A DNA stretch of 64,000 nt, taken from the IMG/VR virus record IMGVR_UViG_3300021976_000006, positions 1-64,000 of that record. One strand, given 5' to 3'. The stretch comes from a virus. Positions 54,858 through 62,282 of this stretch are shown here, piece by piece. How positions within the stretch are numbered: the first letter of the stretch is position 1; each line of letters starts with the position of its first letter. The notes under the pieces are model-generated. The model was not told where the DNA came from, did no database searches, and saw nothing but the letters and a program-made list of their open reading frames with translations. Both the position numbers and the translations under genes were made by a program.

Positions 54858-57029
54858 CTAAACAAATAGTTTCTTTGTAAAGAATTTATCCATTGATGAT
54901 TCTTCTTGTGCTTCTTCAACTGTTATATTATGCATCTCTACAGCTTGTAGTATACATAAGGCAAATGATATAAATCTATCAAAGTTACCTTCATCATTGT
55001 AAGCTATCAACTCTGTTAATAAAGGAATTGATAATATCTTAGTAAGTTGTAGAATACCTGGCTCTATTTCTTCTTTAAGCCAATCTCTCATCTTAATTTC
55101 TAAATCATCTTTAATCTGTTTACTCATATGAATACCATAACCACGTTCTACCTTACTAGAAGGAGATATTGATTTAATAATATTAGGTTGAGTATGCAAT
55201 AAATGTAAACAATTTCTTGTTTGAAAATATTGTTTTAATCCTGTATTTTGATTTTCATATAATGCTCTACATTGATACCATTCTAATAATCTCCTACATT
55301 GTTCATAGAAGTCATTAGCAAAATCAGGTCTACCAGTATATTCTGCAACTGGTAAATTATATGTTTGTCCTGAGTGTACAAATCTTTTGTATATGAAGAT
55401 AGAACCATATGAAACAGAGTTCTCTGCTTTATCTTGATCATAAGGGTCAATCCCTGCAATATATTGTCCATAACCAATAGTCTCTGTAGGTTCTTCCCAC
55501 ACAACTACTGCTCCTTTAGGATCTACTGATTTATTAGTAGGATATGTAGCAGGTATTAAATCTTCACCTTTAAAGTAAGCTTTACCATCTGATGAACTTC
55601 TATACATCCATCCTGGAGTACCAAGTGATTTCTTTCTCTCTGTTGACTCTAAACTAGCAAGATGCTCCTTTAGTTCTGCTACAGGAAATAAGTTACCTGT
55701 AAGTACTAAGAATGCTTCTGATGGAAGAACAGGTCTATTCTGTAACTCTGAATATAAAGGCTGTTTAGATTTACCATTAGCTAATTTCTCTCTTTCTTTT
55801 ACTAGATATTCCTTAGCAGCTTGTTCATTAGTAATTCCCTCTTCATCTTTGTACTGATTGAGTGTCTTCCACGCAGGTACAAAATAACCAATTTTTCCTT
55901 TATTCTCAAATTCATCATCAAAAACTAAACAGTCATATGCTTCAGGGTCATAGAATACTTTTTTAACAGCTTCTGTTGTACCACCTTCCATATCACCACC
56001 TGTACCAAACATCCATATAGTACCAAATTTCTCAGCACCATTTGCAGTACATTCTTTTAAAGCACCTAGAGCTGCCTCTAAGTTACCCATAAATCCTATC
56101 TCTTCTAAAGCAGTAAAACCAGGCCTTGTACCATTGGCTGCTAATGGATTATCTTTAAAAGATCTATGATAAATCATAGACTTACTTCCTTTTTTAATCC
56201 AAGTATCTCCTACTTTAGTTTCATACTCAGCAACAATAGTTTTACCTGATTGCCAAGTACCTGAGTATTTCTTTAACATTGGTGCTGGATAATATCTATC
56301 ACCCATCTCTACACCACCTGTAAGGTTCTCAAAACCTAATATAACTTTCTTAATTAAACCAGAGCTGTATTTAGTATCAATAGCACCAATAAGTGTTTCT
56401 GATTTTGGTTTAGCTCTTAAGTCATCATACCAAAATACTCCATCATGCAAAAAGTTCCAACCTATTAAGTTAGAACCAAAGAATGATTTACCTCCACCCC
56501 TAGATTCTATATCTACTACATTTCTAGCTTGGTTTTCCATAAGTGGTCTACCTAGATTACCTTCATGTATCTTCTGGAGATATTCTCTAGCTTCTACATA
56601 TTGTATCTCTTTAAACCTTCTACTGTTCTCTCTGATAAGTTCATAATCTGATTCAGTAGGACTTATAATCCTTTTGTTCTCAAACTCATCATAGAACATT
56701 GCAGAGTCTTTTAATTCTCTGTCACATGTATGGTAGTTATCATGTTCAAAGCCAGAGAATCCTCTAGCTTCTAAAAATAATCTACCTTTTTCCCATTCAA
56801 GATCTCTTAAGAAAGGATGGTCAATAACCTTCTGTTTAGAGTTCTTTCCTTTATTTAATTCAATCTTCCAATGGTTTATATATTGGTAAACTGGACCAGG
56901 CATATATTTACCCCCAACCCAGTATCCCTCTATACATCTTCGTCTTTCTTCTTTCCAGAAAGATCTATATTCCATAGATAAAGGATTTAATCTCTCTATC
57001 TGTGTTTTAAATAATGCGTTATTAATCAT
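54858..57029 (-). CDS. terL: Terminase large subunit
   Basis: SRGGGKS Walker A, EEIG Walker B, GTGG, AGIDPY RNase H motif, GNFDR. Confidence 0.93.
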   Translation of the reverse strand: MINNALFKTQIERLNPLSMEYRSFWKEERRRCIEGYWVGGKYMPGPVYQYINHWKIELNKGKNSKQKVIDHPFLRDLEWEKGRLFLEARGFSGFEHDNYHTCDRELKDSAMFYDEFENKRIISPTESDYELIRENSRRFKEIQYVEAREYLQKIHEGNLGRPLMENQARNVVDIESRGGGKSFFGSNLIGWNFLHDGVFWYDDLRAKPKSETLIGAIDTKYSSGLIKKVILGFENLTGGVEMGDRYYPAPMLKKYSGTWQSGKTIVAEYETKVGDTWIKKGSKSMIYHRSFKDNPLAANGTRPGFTALEEIGFMGNLEAALGALKECTANGAEKFGTIWMFGTGGDMEGGTTEAVKKVFYDPEAYDCLVFDDEFENKGKIGYFVPAWKTLNQYKDEEGITNEQAAKEYLVKEREKLANGKSKQPLYSELQNRPVLPSEAFLVLTGNLFPVAELKEHLASLESTERKKSLGTPGWMYRSSSDGKAYFKGEDLIPATYPTNKSVDPKGAVVVWEEPTETIGYGQYIAGIDPYDQDKAENSVSYGSIFIYKRFVHSGQTYNLPVAEYTGRPDFANDFYEQCRRLLEWYQCRALYENQNTGLKQYFQTRNCLHLLHTQPNIIKSISPSSKVERGYGIHMSKQIKDDLEIKMRDWLKEEIEPGILQLTKILSIPLLTELIAYNDEGNFDRFISFALCILQAVEMHNITVEEAQEESSMDKFFTKKLFV

Positions 57030-59140: not shown

Positions 59141-59515
59141 TTATAATTCTATTTTGAAACTAACTATATATGTACTATCAGTATCAGGTACATATACTCT
59201 AGGATGTACAATTTGAATATTATCTATCTTAGTTACGTAGTTTTTATCTCTAAGAGATTTCATAATGTTATTCAAATTGAAAGAAGAAATACCTAATGTG
59301 GTTCTAATCTCTTCTCTTGATAATGAACTAAATATCATCTTAGATAGTTTATTATCTGCATAACCTTCTTTAGTATATTTAGATTGTAGTTTACATAACT
59401 CTGTAAGTACATCTAGTTCTCTATTAGTTAGATTCATATGACCATTTAAGGTCTTTAAATAAACTTTGTAGAAATCTTTTAATTCTACTTTCCTTCTTAA
59501 TATTTTTTCATTCAT
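59141..59515 (-). CDS. Winged-HTH DNA-binding protein
   Basis: LTNRELDVL...REEIRTTLGISSFNLNNIMKSLRDK. Confidence 0.65.
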   Translation of the reverse strand: MNEKILRRKVELKDFYKVYLKTLNGHMNLTNRELDVLTELCKLQSKYTKEGYADNKLSKMIFSSLSREEIRTTLGISSFNLNNIMKSLRDKNYVTKIDNIQIVHPRVYVPDTDSTYIVSFKIEL

Positions 59516-59660: not shown

Positions 59661-59680
59661 AAATTTAAAGTCCTTTTAGG

Positions 59681-59753
59681 TAGCGGGTAGTGGATCTGCA
59701 CCACTGATCTCCGGGTAATGAGCCCAGCGAGATAACTACTTCTCTAACCCGCA
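59681..59753 (-). tRNA. tRNA-Met(CAT), initiator type, atypical; CCA not encoded
   Basis: Full cloverleaf; U1:U72 mismatch, A11:U24, GGG/CCC anticodon-stem pairs. Confidence 0.85.
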
Positions 59754-60085: not shown

Positions 60086-60442
60086 TTATTTTAATTTATA
60101 TTGTTTTATTAACTTCTGTAATTCAATATCAAGATGATAATAATGTTTAGAGTTAAACCTAACTATTTTAATACCATTGTTTCTACAGAAGATATTTTTG
60201 ATATTATCATTAGTTTTATTCCTATGATATAACTTACCATCATATTCTAATATTAAATTAGACTGAGGAAAGAAGAAATCATATCTATAATATCCTCCTT
60301 TAGGTGATGTAAAGCCTTTAAAGCTTACTTCTCTTTCGTACTTGATGTTATTCTTATTAAGAAAGTAAATGATTAAATCTTCAGCTTTAGAAGGTTCTAC
60401 ATTAGTAGTAAAGTATTGTAATTTAGACTTCTTTATCTTCAT
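60086..60442 (-). CDS. DUF559/Vsr-like endonuclease
   Basis: SKAE, YDFF, LEYDGKLYH, D..K..FC..NGIKIVR. Confidence 0.8.
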   Translation of the reverse strand: MKIKKSKLQYFTTNVEPSKAEDLIIYFLNKNNIKYEREVSFKGFTSPKGGYYRYDFFFPQSNLILEYDGKLYHRNKTNDNIKNIFCRNNGIKIVRFNSKHYYHLDIELQKLIKQYKLK

Positions 60443-60974
60443 ACTTTTCTATAACTTCATTTAACTTAGTAACATCTTTATTATCAACAGCATCTTTAAT
60501 ACTTAACCAGAACTCTAATTGAAGAGTTGCTTCTTCCCACATTAAACTCCATTGTTCTGATGATATTTGATTGTCTTCCATATTATTTATAATTTTGATA
60601 ACTTAACTCTTTAACCCAGTTTGTATTATCAAGATAATAAAGTTTACCATCAATATTAATTACAATTGTATTATTCTCCATCTTCTTTAACTTCCATATT
60701 AATATTCTTAGCTTTTAAAGCTTTTCTGAATTCTCTAAGGAATTCTTCACCAGCAGGTAGATTACTATAGTCTTCAAAGTTCTTAACTAGTTCTCGTAGC
60801 TTAATAGTCTTTCTTAGTGCACTTTTATTTTTTATCATATTAATTATTTTGTTCCCAGTCTGTAAACTTTACTGTTTTATATTTGCTTGCCCATGTACCT
60901 TTCTTTCTTTTAGAAACTTGTACTGTACCAAATTGTTTTCTTATACCTAATTTTTTAAAATACTTTTTTGCCAT
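60423..60974 (-). CDS. Four tiny coupled ORFs (60840-60974, 60671-60838, 60583-60681, 60423-60581)
   Basis: Translated manually; abutting or overlapping start and stop codons; the first is very basic. Confidence 0.5.
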
Positions 60975-61019
60975 AGTTTTATGAATATAAAATAGTTTAT
61001 AATTTTATTCATTTATTAA

Positions 61020-61195
61020 TTAACATGTCCTTAGGACATAGAGAGGTTTCCTGCAAGAATCTCTTCTTACATTCTCCTTGGCTTACATATTGATTGAAGT
61101 CGTCATACCTCTCAAAACCCGTTAATACTGGAGAGTGCTTATACCCATCTTTTATCCAGTCAACAATCACTATTGTAAGTTGCTTAAACTCATGA
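61020..61195 (-). ncRNA. Candidate pseudoknotted structured RNA
   Basis: Own promoter; several 6-8 bp helices, GAGA tetraloop, 7 bp pseudoknot. Confidence 0.6.
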
Positions 61196-61197
61196 TA

Positions 61198-61229
61198 CAA
61201 AGGTAAGTAAAATAATTGATAAATCCTAA
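61198..61229 (-). promoter_or_regulatory. Bacteroidota promoter
   Basis: TTAG-N20-TACCTTTG. Confidence 0.7.
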
Positions 61230-61241
61230 TAATATTGGATA

Positions 61242-61601
61242 TTATTTTACTTTATCTACAAATTTTTGTATCTCATTCATCATCCAAGTTAATAAATAAG
61301 CATGAGCTTCATCATTATCATTATCTGCTGGTATACCAACATGTTCCATTATATAATTAGTACAATGTAAACATTCATGTGCCCATATTCCCCAACTATT
61401 AATATTCTCAGGTCTCATAAATATATAAACACATCTATGATCTTTATAATAACCATTAAAGGCTAATGCTTTACAATCTAAATCTCTATCTGTAAAACTT
61501 AATTTAAGTTCTTTACCACTTTCATTAAAATCATCAGTAATAACTACTACTAATCTCTTTGGATAAAGAGGTATTTTCTTTATTAATTTATTCATGGACA
61601 T
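61242..61601 (-). CDS. Small zincin-like (HExxH) protein
   Basis: AHECLH...NDEAHAY. Confidence 0.7.
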   Translation of the reverse strand: MSMNKLIKKIPLYPKRLVVVITDDFNESGKELKLSFTDRDLDCKALAFNGYYKDHRCVYIFMRPENINSWGIWAHECLHCTNYIMEHVGIPADNDNDEAHAYLLTWMMNEIQKFVDKVK

Positions 61602-62163
61602 ATTTATAACCTTTTATGTGATTTACTTTAATTTCTTTTCCTTTAACTCTTTTAAAACCATTAATAGCATTCCTTAATCTTTCTGCTCTAAAACCTTCTT
61701 CTTCACAACAAATTCTAGAAGACTCATATTTAGCAACTATTTCATTTGTTTTTATATCAATTTTTAATATTGGTTTACATCTATATTTCTCAGGATTCTC
61801 TCTAATTCTTTTATTTATAGTTTCTTTATTAGATGAACCAGTAATATTTCCACCACCTCCAGATCCTATACAATCTTCAACATTTGTTAAACCACATATA
61901 TTTTTATATTTATTATAATAAAATTGTTCCCAATATTTCCATTCTTCAATAGGAACTTCATCTAATATAATTAATACTGGTTTTTGTCCTTTTGTTATTA
62001 AAGATCTTATCCAGTTATTTTTATGTGTTTTATATTGATCTTCATAATCATATTTAGAAATATGAATTGAATATCTATGTTTTGGATTATTAGCTTTACC
62101 TATATATCTAATATTTGAAATGTTATCAGGTTCTGATAGAGCATATATAAATGTTGTTTTCAT
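61588..62163 (-). mobile_element. GIY-YIG-like homing endonuclease with NUMOD1-like tail (start revised from 62271)
   Basis: FIYAL...RYIGK, EQFY; promoter directly before ATG 62163. Confidence 0.8.
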
Positions 62164-62167
62164 AATA

Positions 62168-62199
62168 CAAAGATACAAATAATATTTTATAAAAACAAA
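62168..62199 (-). promoter_or_regulatory. Bacteroidota promoter
   Basis: TTTG-N20-TATCTTTG, ATG 4 nt downstream. Confidence 0.8.
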
Positions 62200-62282
62200 T
62201 GTAGGGGGTACTTTTTTTAAAAATTTTAAAAAATATATGTGTTTAATGTCACCAGGAAGCCTGACAAACACTCCCCCTACAT
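62199..62282. repeat. Nested inverted repeats at the divergence point
   Basis: ATGTAGGGGG...CCCCCTACAT enclosing an AT palindrome and GTCA/TGAC, CAGG/CCTG stems. Confidence 0.65.

Follow-up and report, generated by a model that had tools for sequence, protein, structure and literature searches.

A putative gene for a pseudoknotted small RNA of no described family in environmental crAss-like phages

The minus strand of the DNA analysed here carries, at positions 61184-61036, what is almost certainly a genuine folded RNA of about 150-170 nt, a member of a real structured RNA family, uncatalogued until now, of environmental crAss-like phages. The stretch of DNA, referred to as the window, comprises 64,000 nt (positions 1 to 64,000 of the IMG/VR virus record IMGVR_UViG_3300021976_000006). 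The crAss-like phages rank with the most abundant of the phages that infect Bacteroidota, and the placement of the window genome with them was checked through TerL. A first-pass annotation, made by a model from the letters of the window, had described a promoter-driven RNA with nested helices and a pseudoknot in this segment, and inspection of the sequence found every element of that description at its place on the minus strand. In the 5' to 3' direction of the RNA the features are as follows.

61198-61229, minus strand: promoter, with a -33-like TTAG(GA) at 61229-61226, a spacer of 20 nt and the -7 box TACCTTTG at 61205-61198
61036-61184, minus strand: conserved core of the RNA (149 nt; AGCAAC to CUCUCUAUGU), matched over its full length by the covariance model R1
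61174-61179, minus strand: 5' strand of helix P1, CUUACA, pairing with 61082-61087
61164-61169, minus strand: 5' strand of helix P2, UGAUUG, pairing with 61091-61096
61127-61160, minus strand: P3 hairpin, with the stem ACUGGA (61160-61155)/UCCAGU (61132-61127) and a variable distal part
61097-61126, minus strand: junction between P3 and P2, with the invariant GGGUUUU (61120-61114), the 5' strand of the pseudoknot GAGAGGU (61113-61107) and the invariant AUGAC (61106-61102)
61091-61096, minus strand: 3' strand of P2, CAAUCA, pairing with 61164-61169
61082-61087, minus strand: 3' strand of P1, UGUAAG, pairing with 61174-61179
61052-61071, minus strand: P4 hairpin, UGUAAGAA-GAGA-UUCUUGCA, with a loop and a length that vary across the family
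61041-61051, minus strand: invariant GGAA and the 3' strand of the pseudoknot, ACCUCUC (61047-61041)
61025-61039, minus strand: 3' hairpin AUGUCC-UAA-GGACAU, local to the window lineage

The -7 box TACCTTTG was assigned to the type TAnnTTTG, which we take to be the sigma-A type -7 consensus of Bacteroidota; the model of a sigma-70 promoter scan that was also run is not informative for Bacteroidota promoters. Transcription would start near 61192, and an A-rich leader of about 14 nt lies between the -7 box and the AGCAAC at 61184. As had been annotated, the segment is richer in GC than its surroundings, with a GC content of 0.35-0.37 across the RNA compared to about 0.25 in the flanks.

Homologues were sought by way of the TerL gene (54858-57029, a PHROG terminase), from which related viral contigs were reached. 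In the relative L009, the TerL of which is 70% identical, the same promoter is followed by three identical blocks, GGGTTTTGAGAGGTATGAC, TAAGCCAAGG and GGAAACCTCTCTAT, which are separated by variable DNA with indels of 5, 9 and 1 nt and are not spanned by any open reading frame (ORF). For the promoter module, identity is 70-80% in both L009 and L005. Three pattern scans were made, with a 17-mer in viral contigs, with a two-block pattern in metagenome contigs and with a pattern in which the two pseudoknot strands were given as N. The family comprises 27 distinct sequences from viral and metagenome contigs, most of the contigs being 20-104 kb in length. The covariance model R1, which was built from a plain alignment (A2), scored 113 bits on the core in the window (E 1e-32).

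In each of six genomes that are 90-100% complete, R1 found exactly one copy of the RNA, on the strand of TerL and 4-10 kb upstream of it. The position is fixed at the head of a gene block running into the terminase gene. The TerL proteins of four of these six genomes are only 31-33% identical to that of the window, which is as far as Cellulophaga phage phi14:2, a member of Crassvirales.

Other searches delimited the distribution of the RNA. An exact 34-mer had no match in the viral contigs, a search of viral contigs for relatives of the neighbouring 119-aa protein gave none, and blastn of the region gave no match among GenBank phages. R1 found nothing in phi14:2, in Flavobacterium phage Fpv20 or in a 44-kb fragment of the closest relative, G002. 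Among 151 genomes of the phylum of L057, taken to be Bacteroidota, the only R1 match had 20 bits (E 0.008) and was read as noise, as was a match of 15 bits in L005. When 185,579 species genomes were scanned with a pattern free of the pseudoknot, three contigs were matched, of which one was real. This contig, L056 (DASVUV010000089.1, 104,255 bp), carries the RNA and comes from a metagenome-assembled genome (MAG) labelled Allosphingosinicella. It is almost equal in length to the viral contig of L041, which has 104,241 bp and direct terminal repeats, and is probably a complete crAss-like phage genome mis-binned into a bacterial MAG. L057 and L058 matched the search patterns and had no covariance-model match, and L026 matched a pattern, had no R1 match at E up to 1 and lacked the other conserved blocks; all three were considered chance matches. 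The RNA was found to be restricted to phage contigs.

The main support for a folded RNA comes from covariation. Pairing was counted for P1, P2 and the pseudoknot (18 pairs) in A2, a MAFFT alignment fitted to no structure. In this alignment 94.6% of the cells were paired, compared to 35-47% when the 3' partners were slid by 1-3 columns, and the covariation score was 0.448, compared to at most 0.068 in the controls. None of 500 shuffles reached either the pairing or the score value, and two-sided changes were present in 11 of the 18 pairs. The variable hairpins were realigned with R1, and in the resulting alignment, which is fitted to the model and therefore leans toward the structure, 91.6% of 777 cells pair in the five helices, with two-sided changes in 22 of 29 pairs.

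Individually, P1 had 95.7% of its cells paired and two-sided changes in four of six pairs (for example UA/AU and AU/GC), and P2 had 87-91% paired and two-sided changes in four of five. For P3 and P4, in the model-fitted alignment, two-sided changes were found in five of five and six of six pairs, respectively. The P3 stem occurs as ACUGGA/UCCAGU, GAUUGG/CCAAUC, CCUUCA/UGAAGG, CUCCAC/GUGGAG and GAGAGG/CCUCUC. The pairing of P1, P2, P3, P4 and the pseudoknot, proposed in the first-pass annotation from a single sequence, is thus borne out by homologues, being kept via double changes across the 27 distinct sequences.

The pseudoknot was paired in 99.5% of its cells, with two-sided changes at three positions. 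Its strands had been left free in the search pattern, yet they covary. RNAalifold, which is incapable of drawing pseudoknots, chose exactly the pseudoknot helix as the consensus, unaided. The pseudoknot was found in these forms.

GAGAGGU/ACCUCUC: 10 of the 27 aligned sequences
GCGAGGU/ACCUCGC: 12 of the 27 aligned sequences
GCAGGGU/ACCCUGC: 3 of the 27 aligned sequences
GCGAGGU/ACCUCGU: a G-U variant, at 4 loci in the pattern scan and in 1 of the 27 aligned rows
ACGAGGU/ACCUCGC: 1 sequence, with a single mismatch

The helices follow each other in the order P1, P2, P3, P3', PK, P2', P1', P4, P4', PK' (PK, pseudoknot), and the pseudoknot is predicted to join the large internal loop between P3 and P2 to the 3' tail. 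The unpaired bases that do not vary are the 5'-terminal AGCAACU, GGGUUUU and AUGAC on the two sides of the 5' pseudoknot strand, AGCC.AG following P1, and GGAA, which precedes the 3' pseudoknot strand. Of the 777 pair cells, 68 are G-U, and the same cells would be A-C on the opposite strand. The minus strand had been annotated as the RNA strand, and we agree, since the G-U cells, the promoter and the direction of the terminators all point to it.

Two of the annotated details were present in the window and not conserved. The loop of P4 is GAGA in the window, and thus a GNRA loop as described, whereas loops of differing size and sequence are found in the family. Similarly, the final AUGUCC/GGACAU hairpin is present in the window and unchanged in a close relative, a contig of 91,852 nt, but it is absent in the nearest relatives, L028 and L029, and in other members its place is taken by different hairpins with a true terminator behind them. 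A local 5' hairpin, CAAC/GUUG, was rejected, as it never covaries, is absent in L030-L032 and L047 and would cross both P1 and P2.

With Rfam 15 (4227 models) there were no matches at gathering score in the whole window. On 60700-61500, at E up to 10, there were two noise matches, both on the opposite strand, and on six homologous loci, at E up to 1, only one tRNA and noise were found. The annotated novelty of the RNA therefore stands. ARAGORN detected only a tRNA-Met (59679-59753) in the window, and the RNA is not a tRNA or a tmRNA.

One ORF runs across the element.

61009-61200, minus strand: 63-aa ORF starting with TTG (53 aa when read from GTG at 61170), judged to be a chance open frame

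It might be read as a small protein gene of 63 or 53 aa, as the frame is open across the whole element, which we estimated to be about a 1-in-20 event over six frames at this composition, and the 53-aa form is predicted by a gene caller. However, the ORF has no ATG start, and its codon usage is unlike that of the genes of the phage. GC at third codon positions (GC3) is 0.397 in the 63-aa ORF, compared to a mean of 0.12 +/- 0.06 in 1018 63-codon windows from the 57 long ORFs of this 94-kb genome, none of which was as high; the codon score of the ORF was in the bottom 0.3%. There was no Pfam or PHROG match, and the only relative among 5.8 billion protein clusters was the window's own protein. 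In homologous DNA every frame contains stops, and there are indels of 1, 5 and 9 nt. The 63-aa frame is broken in all 26 homologues and open in the window genome only, and the stop-free run is 77 codons in the window, 40-43 in the nearest relatives and 26-62 in the others, in differing frames. Two tblastn 'relatives' of the ORF, L001 and L002, are GC-rich unrelated phages which share the word KHSPVLTG and were judged to be chance matches. The frame is thus not conserved as a protein, consistent with a non-coding RNA. A leaderless ORF of seven codons that had been annotated at the start of the RNA is not conserved either, there being no ATG at that place in L028, L029 and L022. The comparative data speak for a non-coding element; a protein gene is refuted by them and can be considered effectively excluded.

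Own promoters and own terminators indicate that the RNA would be a self-contained unit in 17 of the 27 members. A TAnnTTTG box is located 21-27 nt before AGCAAC in 21 of the 27 sequences, in support of the annotated promoter-driven RNA, and 39 nt before it in L047. Where such a box is lacking, the place is taken in one case each by the contig end, TATAATTG, a tRNA and another stem-loop. In L052 (L052:10195-10280) the DNA upstream of the RNA has no promoter box; a long stem, AUCAAUUAUC...GAUAAUUGAU, occurs after a -7-like box and could represent an additional structured element of that transcript.

The intrinsic terminator of the 17 members consists of a GC-rich hairpin followed by 7-9 U and is found 70-230 nt downstream of the core; an RNA extending to its own terminator would be 240-330 nt long in many relatives. 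A complete new promoter precedes the next ORF in 13 of these 17. No terminator was found in the window, L028, L029, L009, L030-32, L048, L052 and L025, in which an ORF starts 9-90 nt downstream; the window has only the promoter and a weak 3' hairpin without a U-run. At L034:2305-2420, L046:9033-9140 and similar loci, the RNA has a 3' extension with an AU-rich hairpin, a conserved AUAGGAAACUUAUAU, which echoes the GGAAAC before the pseudoknot strand, and a strong terminator, CCCACU...AGUGGG with U7-9. This extension module is missing from the window.

The first-pass annotation had regarded the RNA as the leader heading a small-gene operon and had suggested a basic 44-aa peptide or a DUF559 nuclease, both encoded downstream, as its partner. 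The terminators and the promoters following them do not fit a leader. The partners were not retained, as the downstream genes differ between members and the 91,852-nt relative keeps the RNA without the peptide gene. The first downstream genes belong to many unrelated clusters of small proteins without Pfam or PHROG function.

These data also bear on a riboswitch, in which the core would be an aptamer for a metabolite or signalling molecule controlling the downstream genes. The location directly after the promoter, the conserved unpaired bases around the pseudoknot combined with variable peripheral hairpins, and the terminator downstream in many members would all suit a riboswitch. However, between the core and this distant terminator there are hairpins or a tRNA, the new promoter follows at 13 loci, and no alternative pairing between core and terminator was seen. 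The genes that would be controlled are small, unrelated, uncharacterised and different from member to member. Neither a leader of function-related genes nor an expression platform overlapping the core was found, and there was no Rfam riboswitch match. Control of the basic peptide or nuclease by a riboswitch appears unlikely, and we consider a riboswitch of any kind highly improbable.

In two lineages the RNA has tRNA neighbours. In L041 a tRNA-Thr (L041:2076-2149) ends 13 nt upstream of the RNA, and in L047 a tRNA-Tyr (L047:7423-7503) is located about 60 nt downstream of it, before the terminator; the RNA is probably co-transcribed with the tRNAs in both. This adjacency, together with the compact pseudoknotted core and its invariant junction bases, would be expected of a new class of self-cleaving or catalytic RNA, for example one processing a tRNA-containing primary transcript. 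Small ribozymes are common beside phage tRNAs, theta ribozymes being one example (PMC10879173). Only two of the 27 members have an adjacent tRNA, however, no Rfam ribozyme family was matched, and HDV-like, twister, pistol, hatchet and glmS folds have a different helix order. A catalytic RNA therefore seems improbable.

Upstream genes are mostly on the opposite strand, whereas downstream genes are always co-directional with the RNA. This arrangement is relevant for another type of function. The RNAs put and EAR are structured antiterminators, and the RNA could be a cis-acting processive antiterminator like put of HK022 or EAR of Bacillus, the nascent RNA staying on the polymerase that made it and carrying it past the nearest terminator and subsequent ones into the long block with the terminase and structural genes. 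The RNA is promoter-proximal, co-directional with a block ending in TerL 4-10 kb away and kept across deep divergence; a strong terminator stands behind it in 17 of the 27 members, with direct fusion to genes otherwise; and its near-invariant unpaired bases would suit a conserved host partner such as RNA polymerase. At the 13 loci with a complete new promoter between the terminator and the first gene, however, read-through would not be needed. Moreover, the unit contains a tRNA in L047, and in L041 a tRNA immediately precedes the RNA; no terminator-like site was found between the RNA and TerL in the window, and none of the Rfam antiterminator families resembles the RNA in sequence or in fold. 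On balance we regard such an antiterminator as unlikely, although it is the main alternative.

The element is best described as a putative gene of a structured small RNA of no described family, and a free-standing, trans-acting RNA is the function we favour, with about half of our confidence. The host RNA polymerase would start at the Bacteroidota-type promoter and make an RNA of about 150-170 nt. P1, P2 and P3 would stack into a long arm, and the 30-nt internal loop would pair over 7 bp with the 3' tail, just after the variable P4, so that the most conserved unpaired bases (GGGUUUU, AUGAC, GCCAAG and GGAA) would surround the pseudoknot. Like other stable RNAs, the RNA has tRNAs in its unit in two lineages, and it would accordingly be stable, acting via its three-dimensional fold rather than by antisense pairing or by sensing for the gene that follows. 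Such sensing seems unnecessary because of the RNA's own terminator, the promoter following it and the varying neighbours. Because the core is nearly invariant while TerL has diverged to about 32% identity, a phage protein, which would evolve fast, is a less likely partner than a small molecule or a conserved component of the host (a polymerase, the ribosome or a factor of RNA processing). It is possible, although we hold it only tentatively, that the RNA represents a new functional class. It might directly reprogram a conserved machine of the host, either as an RNA-only antiterminator acting on the late or structural operon or by serving as a decoy for a factor of host defence or RNA processing; alternatively, it might be pRNA-like, the 'pseudoknot' being an intermolecular contact in an oligomer that serves packaging.

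Several points weigh against a free-standing RNA with a conserved host partner. By itself the window sequence folds no better than shuffles (minimum free energy of the minus strand -38.5 kcal/mol vs -37.1 +/- 4.0 kcal/mol, z = -0.35), and 6-bp complements are expected by chance within 180 nt. The family is known from DNA sequence, from which a discrete transcript is predicted. In the terminator-less members, including the window, an unprocessed RNA would form the 5' portion of an mRNA, and the co-directional genes downstream at every locus fit a cis-acting role as well. The argument for a conserved host target is drawn solely from the pattern of conservation, part of which could be explained by exchange of the RNA cassette between phages. 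Finally, the RNA appears to be dispensable or replaceable, as it is absent from G002, the closest relative, which is syntenic and has a TerL 83% identical to that of the window.

Exchange of the cassette is suggested by the 91,852-nt contig (Logan, soil runs), which is about 94% identical to the window over 61002-61595. There are 22 substitutions as well as indels in the 149-nt RNA, compared to five substitutions in the 360-nt gene for the 119-aa protein, and the RNA allele resembles that of L028. Because the RNA is far more diverged than the 119-aa gene and its allele is L028-like, the RNA cassette may have been exchanged by recombination. Almost all changes in the RNA are in helices or at the tip of P3; there is no change in 61036-61056, and in 61093-61136 there is only one deleted junction base. 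By hand comparison, in P2 the pair G61168-C61092 has become A-U, and in P4 the pair G61066-C61057 has become A-U and A61064-U61059 has become U-G. The gene of the 44-aa basic peptide is missing from this contig, 162 nt (60840-61002 in the window) having been replaced by 20 other letters.

Replacement of the RNA is suggested by L005 (IMGVR_UViG_3300023181_000043), from the closest relative, with the TerL 83% identical to that of the window. The slot between the 119-aa and DUF559 genes (L005:7040-7240, plus strand) has the same promoter followed by about 200 nt of different DNA free of ORFs, with a 12-bp stem, AAUUAGAGAAAC/GUUUCUCUAAUU, two further hairpins and a U-run. This looks like another small RNA gene that replaces the pseudoknotted RNA.

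In the window, the RNA region is bracketed by two small nuclease genes, both on the minus strand. A 227-aa ORF (61588-62271) looks as if it has a GIY-YIG motif and has no Pfam or PHROG match, and a 118-aa DUF559/HNH-like endonuclease (60086-60442; PHROG 'HNH/homing endonuclease') has a copy in G002 that is 61% identical. The RNA-bearing clades have a single neighbour in common, a 124-aa protein (59141-59515, minus strand) that looks like a helix-turn-helix protein and is matched by neither Pfam nor PHROG; its gene immediately follows the RNA in L030-L032 and is 2-3 kb downstream of it at other loci. The gene is also present in G002, which lacks the RNA, and is therefore not RNA-specific.

In the literature we found no description of this RNA. 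The only crAss-related non-coding RNA (ncRNA) that was found is that of the UG27 reverse-transcriptase systems, and beyond tRNAs, tmRNAs and retroelement RNAs no functional ncRNA was found for crAss-like phages. The UG27 ncRNA occurs in gut phages, some of them Crassvirales; it consists of three long stem-loops and is located between the gene of the reverse transcriptase and an associated gene (PMC9226505). It is, like the RNA described here, a predicted structured ncRNA of phages of Bacteroidota. A link was nevertheless rejected, since fold and context differ: no reverse-transcriptase gene was found among the ORFs around the RNA or among the shared clusters within 3 kb at related loci. Part of the RNA may be included in a catalogue made from IMG/VR (PMC10690425), in which 10,006 candidate structured RNAs, with motifs of 29-151 nt, are listed without names. 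We rate the RNA as a new RNA class.

Of the better known systems, riboswitch aptamers with pseudoknots between an internal loop and the tail resemble the RNA in being promoter-proximal and in having a conserved junction and pseudoknot with variable peripheral stems. They differ in that the RNA has no coherent downstream gene set or overlapping expression platform, is followed by its own terminator and a new promoter, and has no Rfam match. GOLLD, ROOL and the T4 stable RNAs species 1 and 2 are similar in being phage-borne, structured, often located beside tRNA genes, free-standing and of unknown function. However, GOLLD and ROOL are 500-800 nt long and their Rfam models were not matched, whereas the RNA has a core of 150 nt and is known from crAss-like contigs only.

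In put and EAR a structured RNA follows the promoter and precedes terminators and a long co-directional operon, an order that is seen here in the 17 members with a terminator. EAR also contains a pseudoknot, and the target of put is the conserved host RNA polymerase. They differ from the RNA in lacking any match in sequence or fold, and here there is a new promoter after the terminator at 13 loci and tRNAs in the unit in two lineages. The pRNA of phi29 is a phage RNA of about 120-170 nt with its own promoter, a conserved fold and a covarying key pairing, and the fixed place of the RNA upstream of the packaging genes is reminiscent of it. The key pairing of pRNA is intermolecular, which covariation cannot tell from an internal pseudoknot. 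On the other hand, pRNA has another helix order and belongs to another phage group, no sign of oligomers or portal binding was seen for the RNA, and Rfam, which presumably includes a pRNA model, gave no match.

Compared with these systems, the RNA adds a well-supported new fold to the orphan RNAs of bacteria and phages. It bears marks of a precise function, namely five covarying helices including a pseudoknot, a near-invariant core and a fixed place before the packaging block, and thus provides a short and concrete object for asking how crAss-like phages handle host transcription, RNA processing or defence. If it does act as an antiterminator, a decoy or a pRNA-like molecule, it would be the first functional RNA described for Crassvirales.

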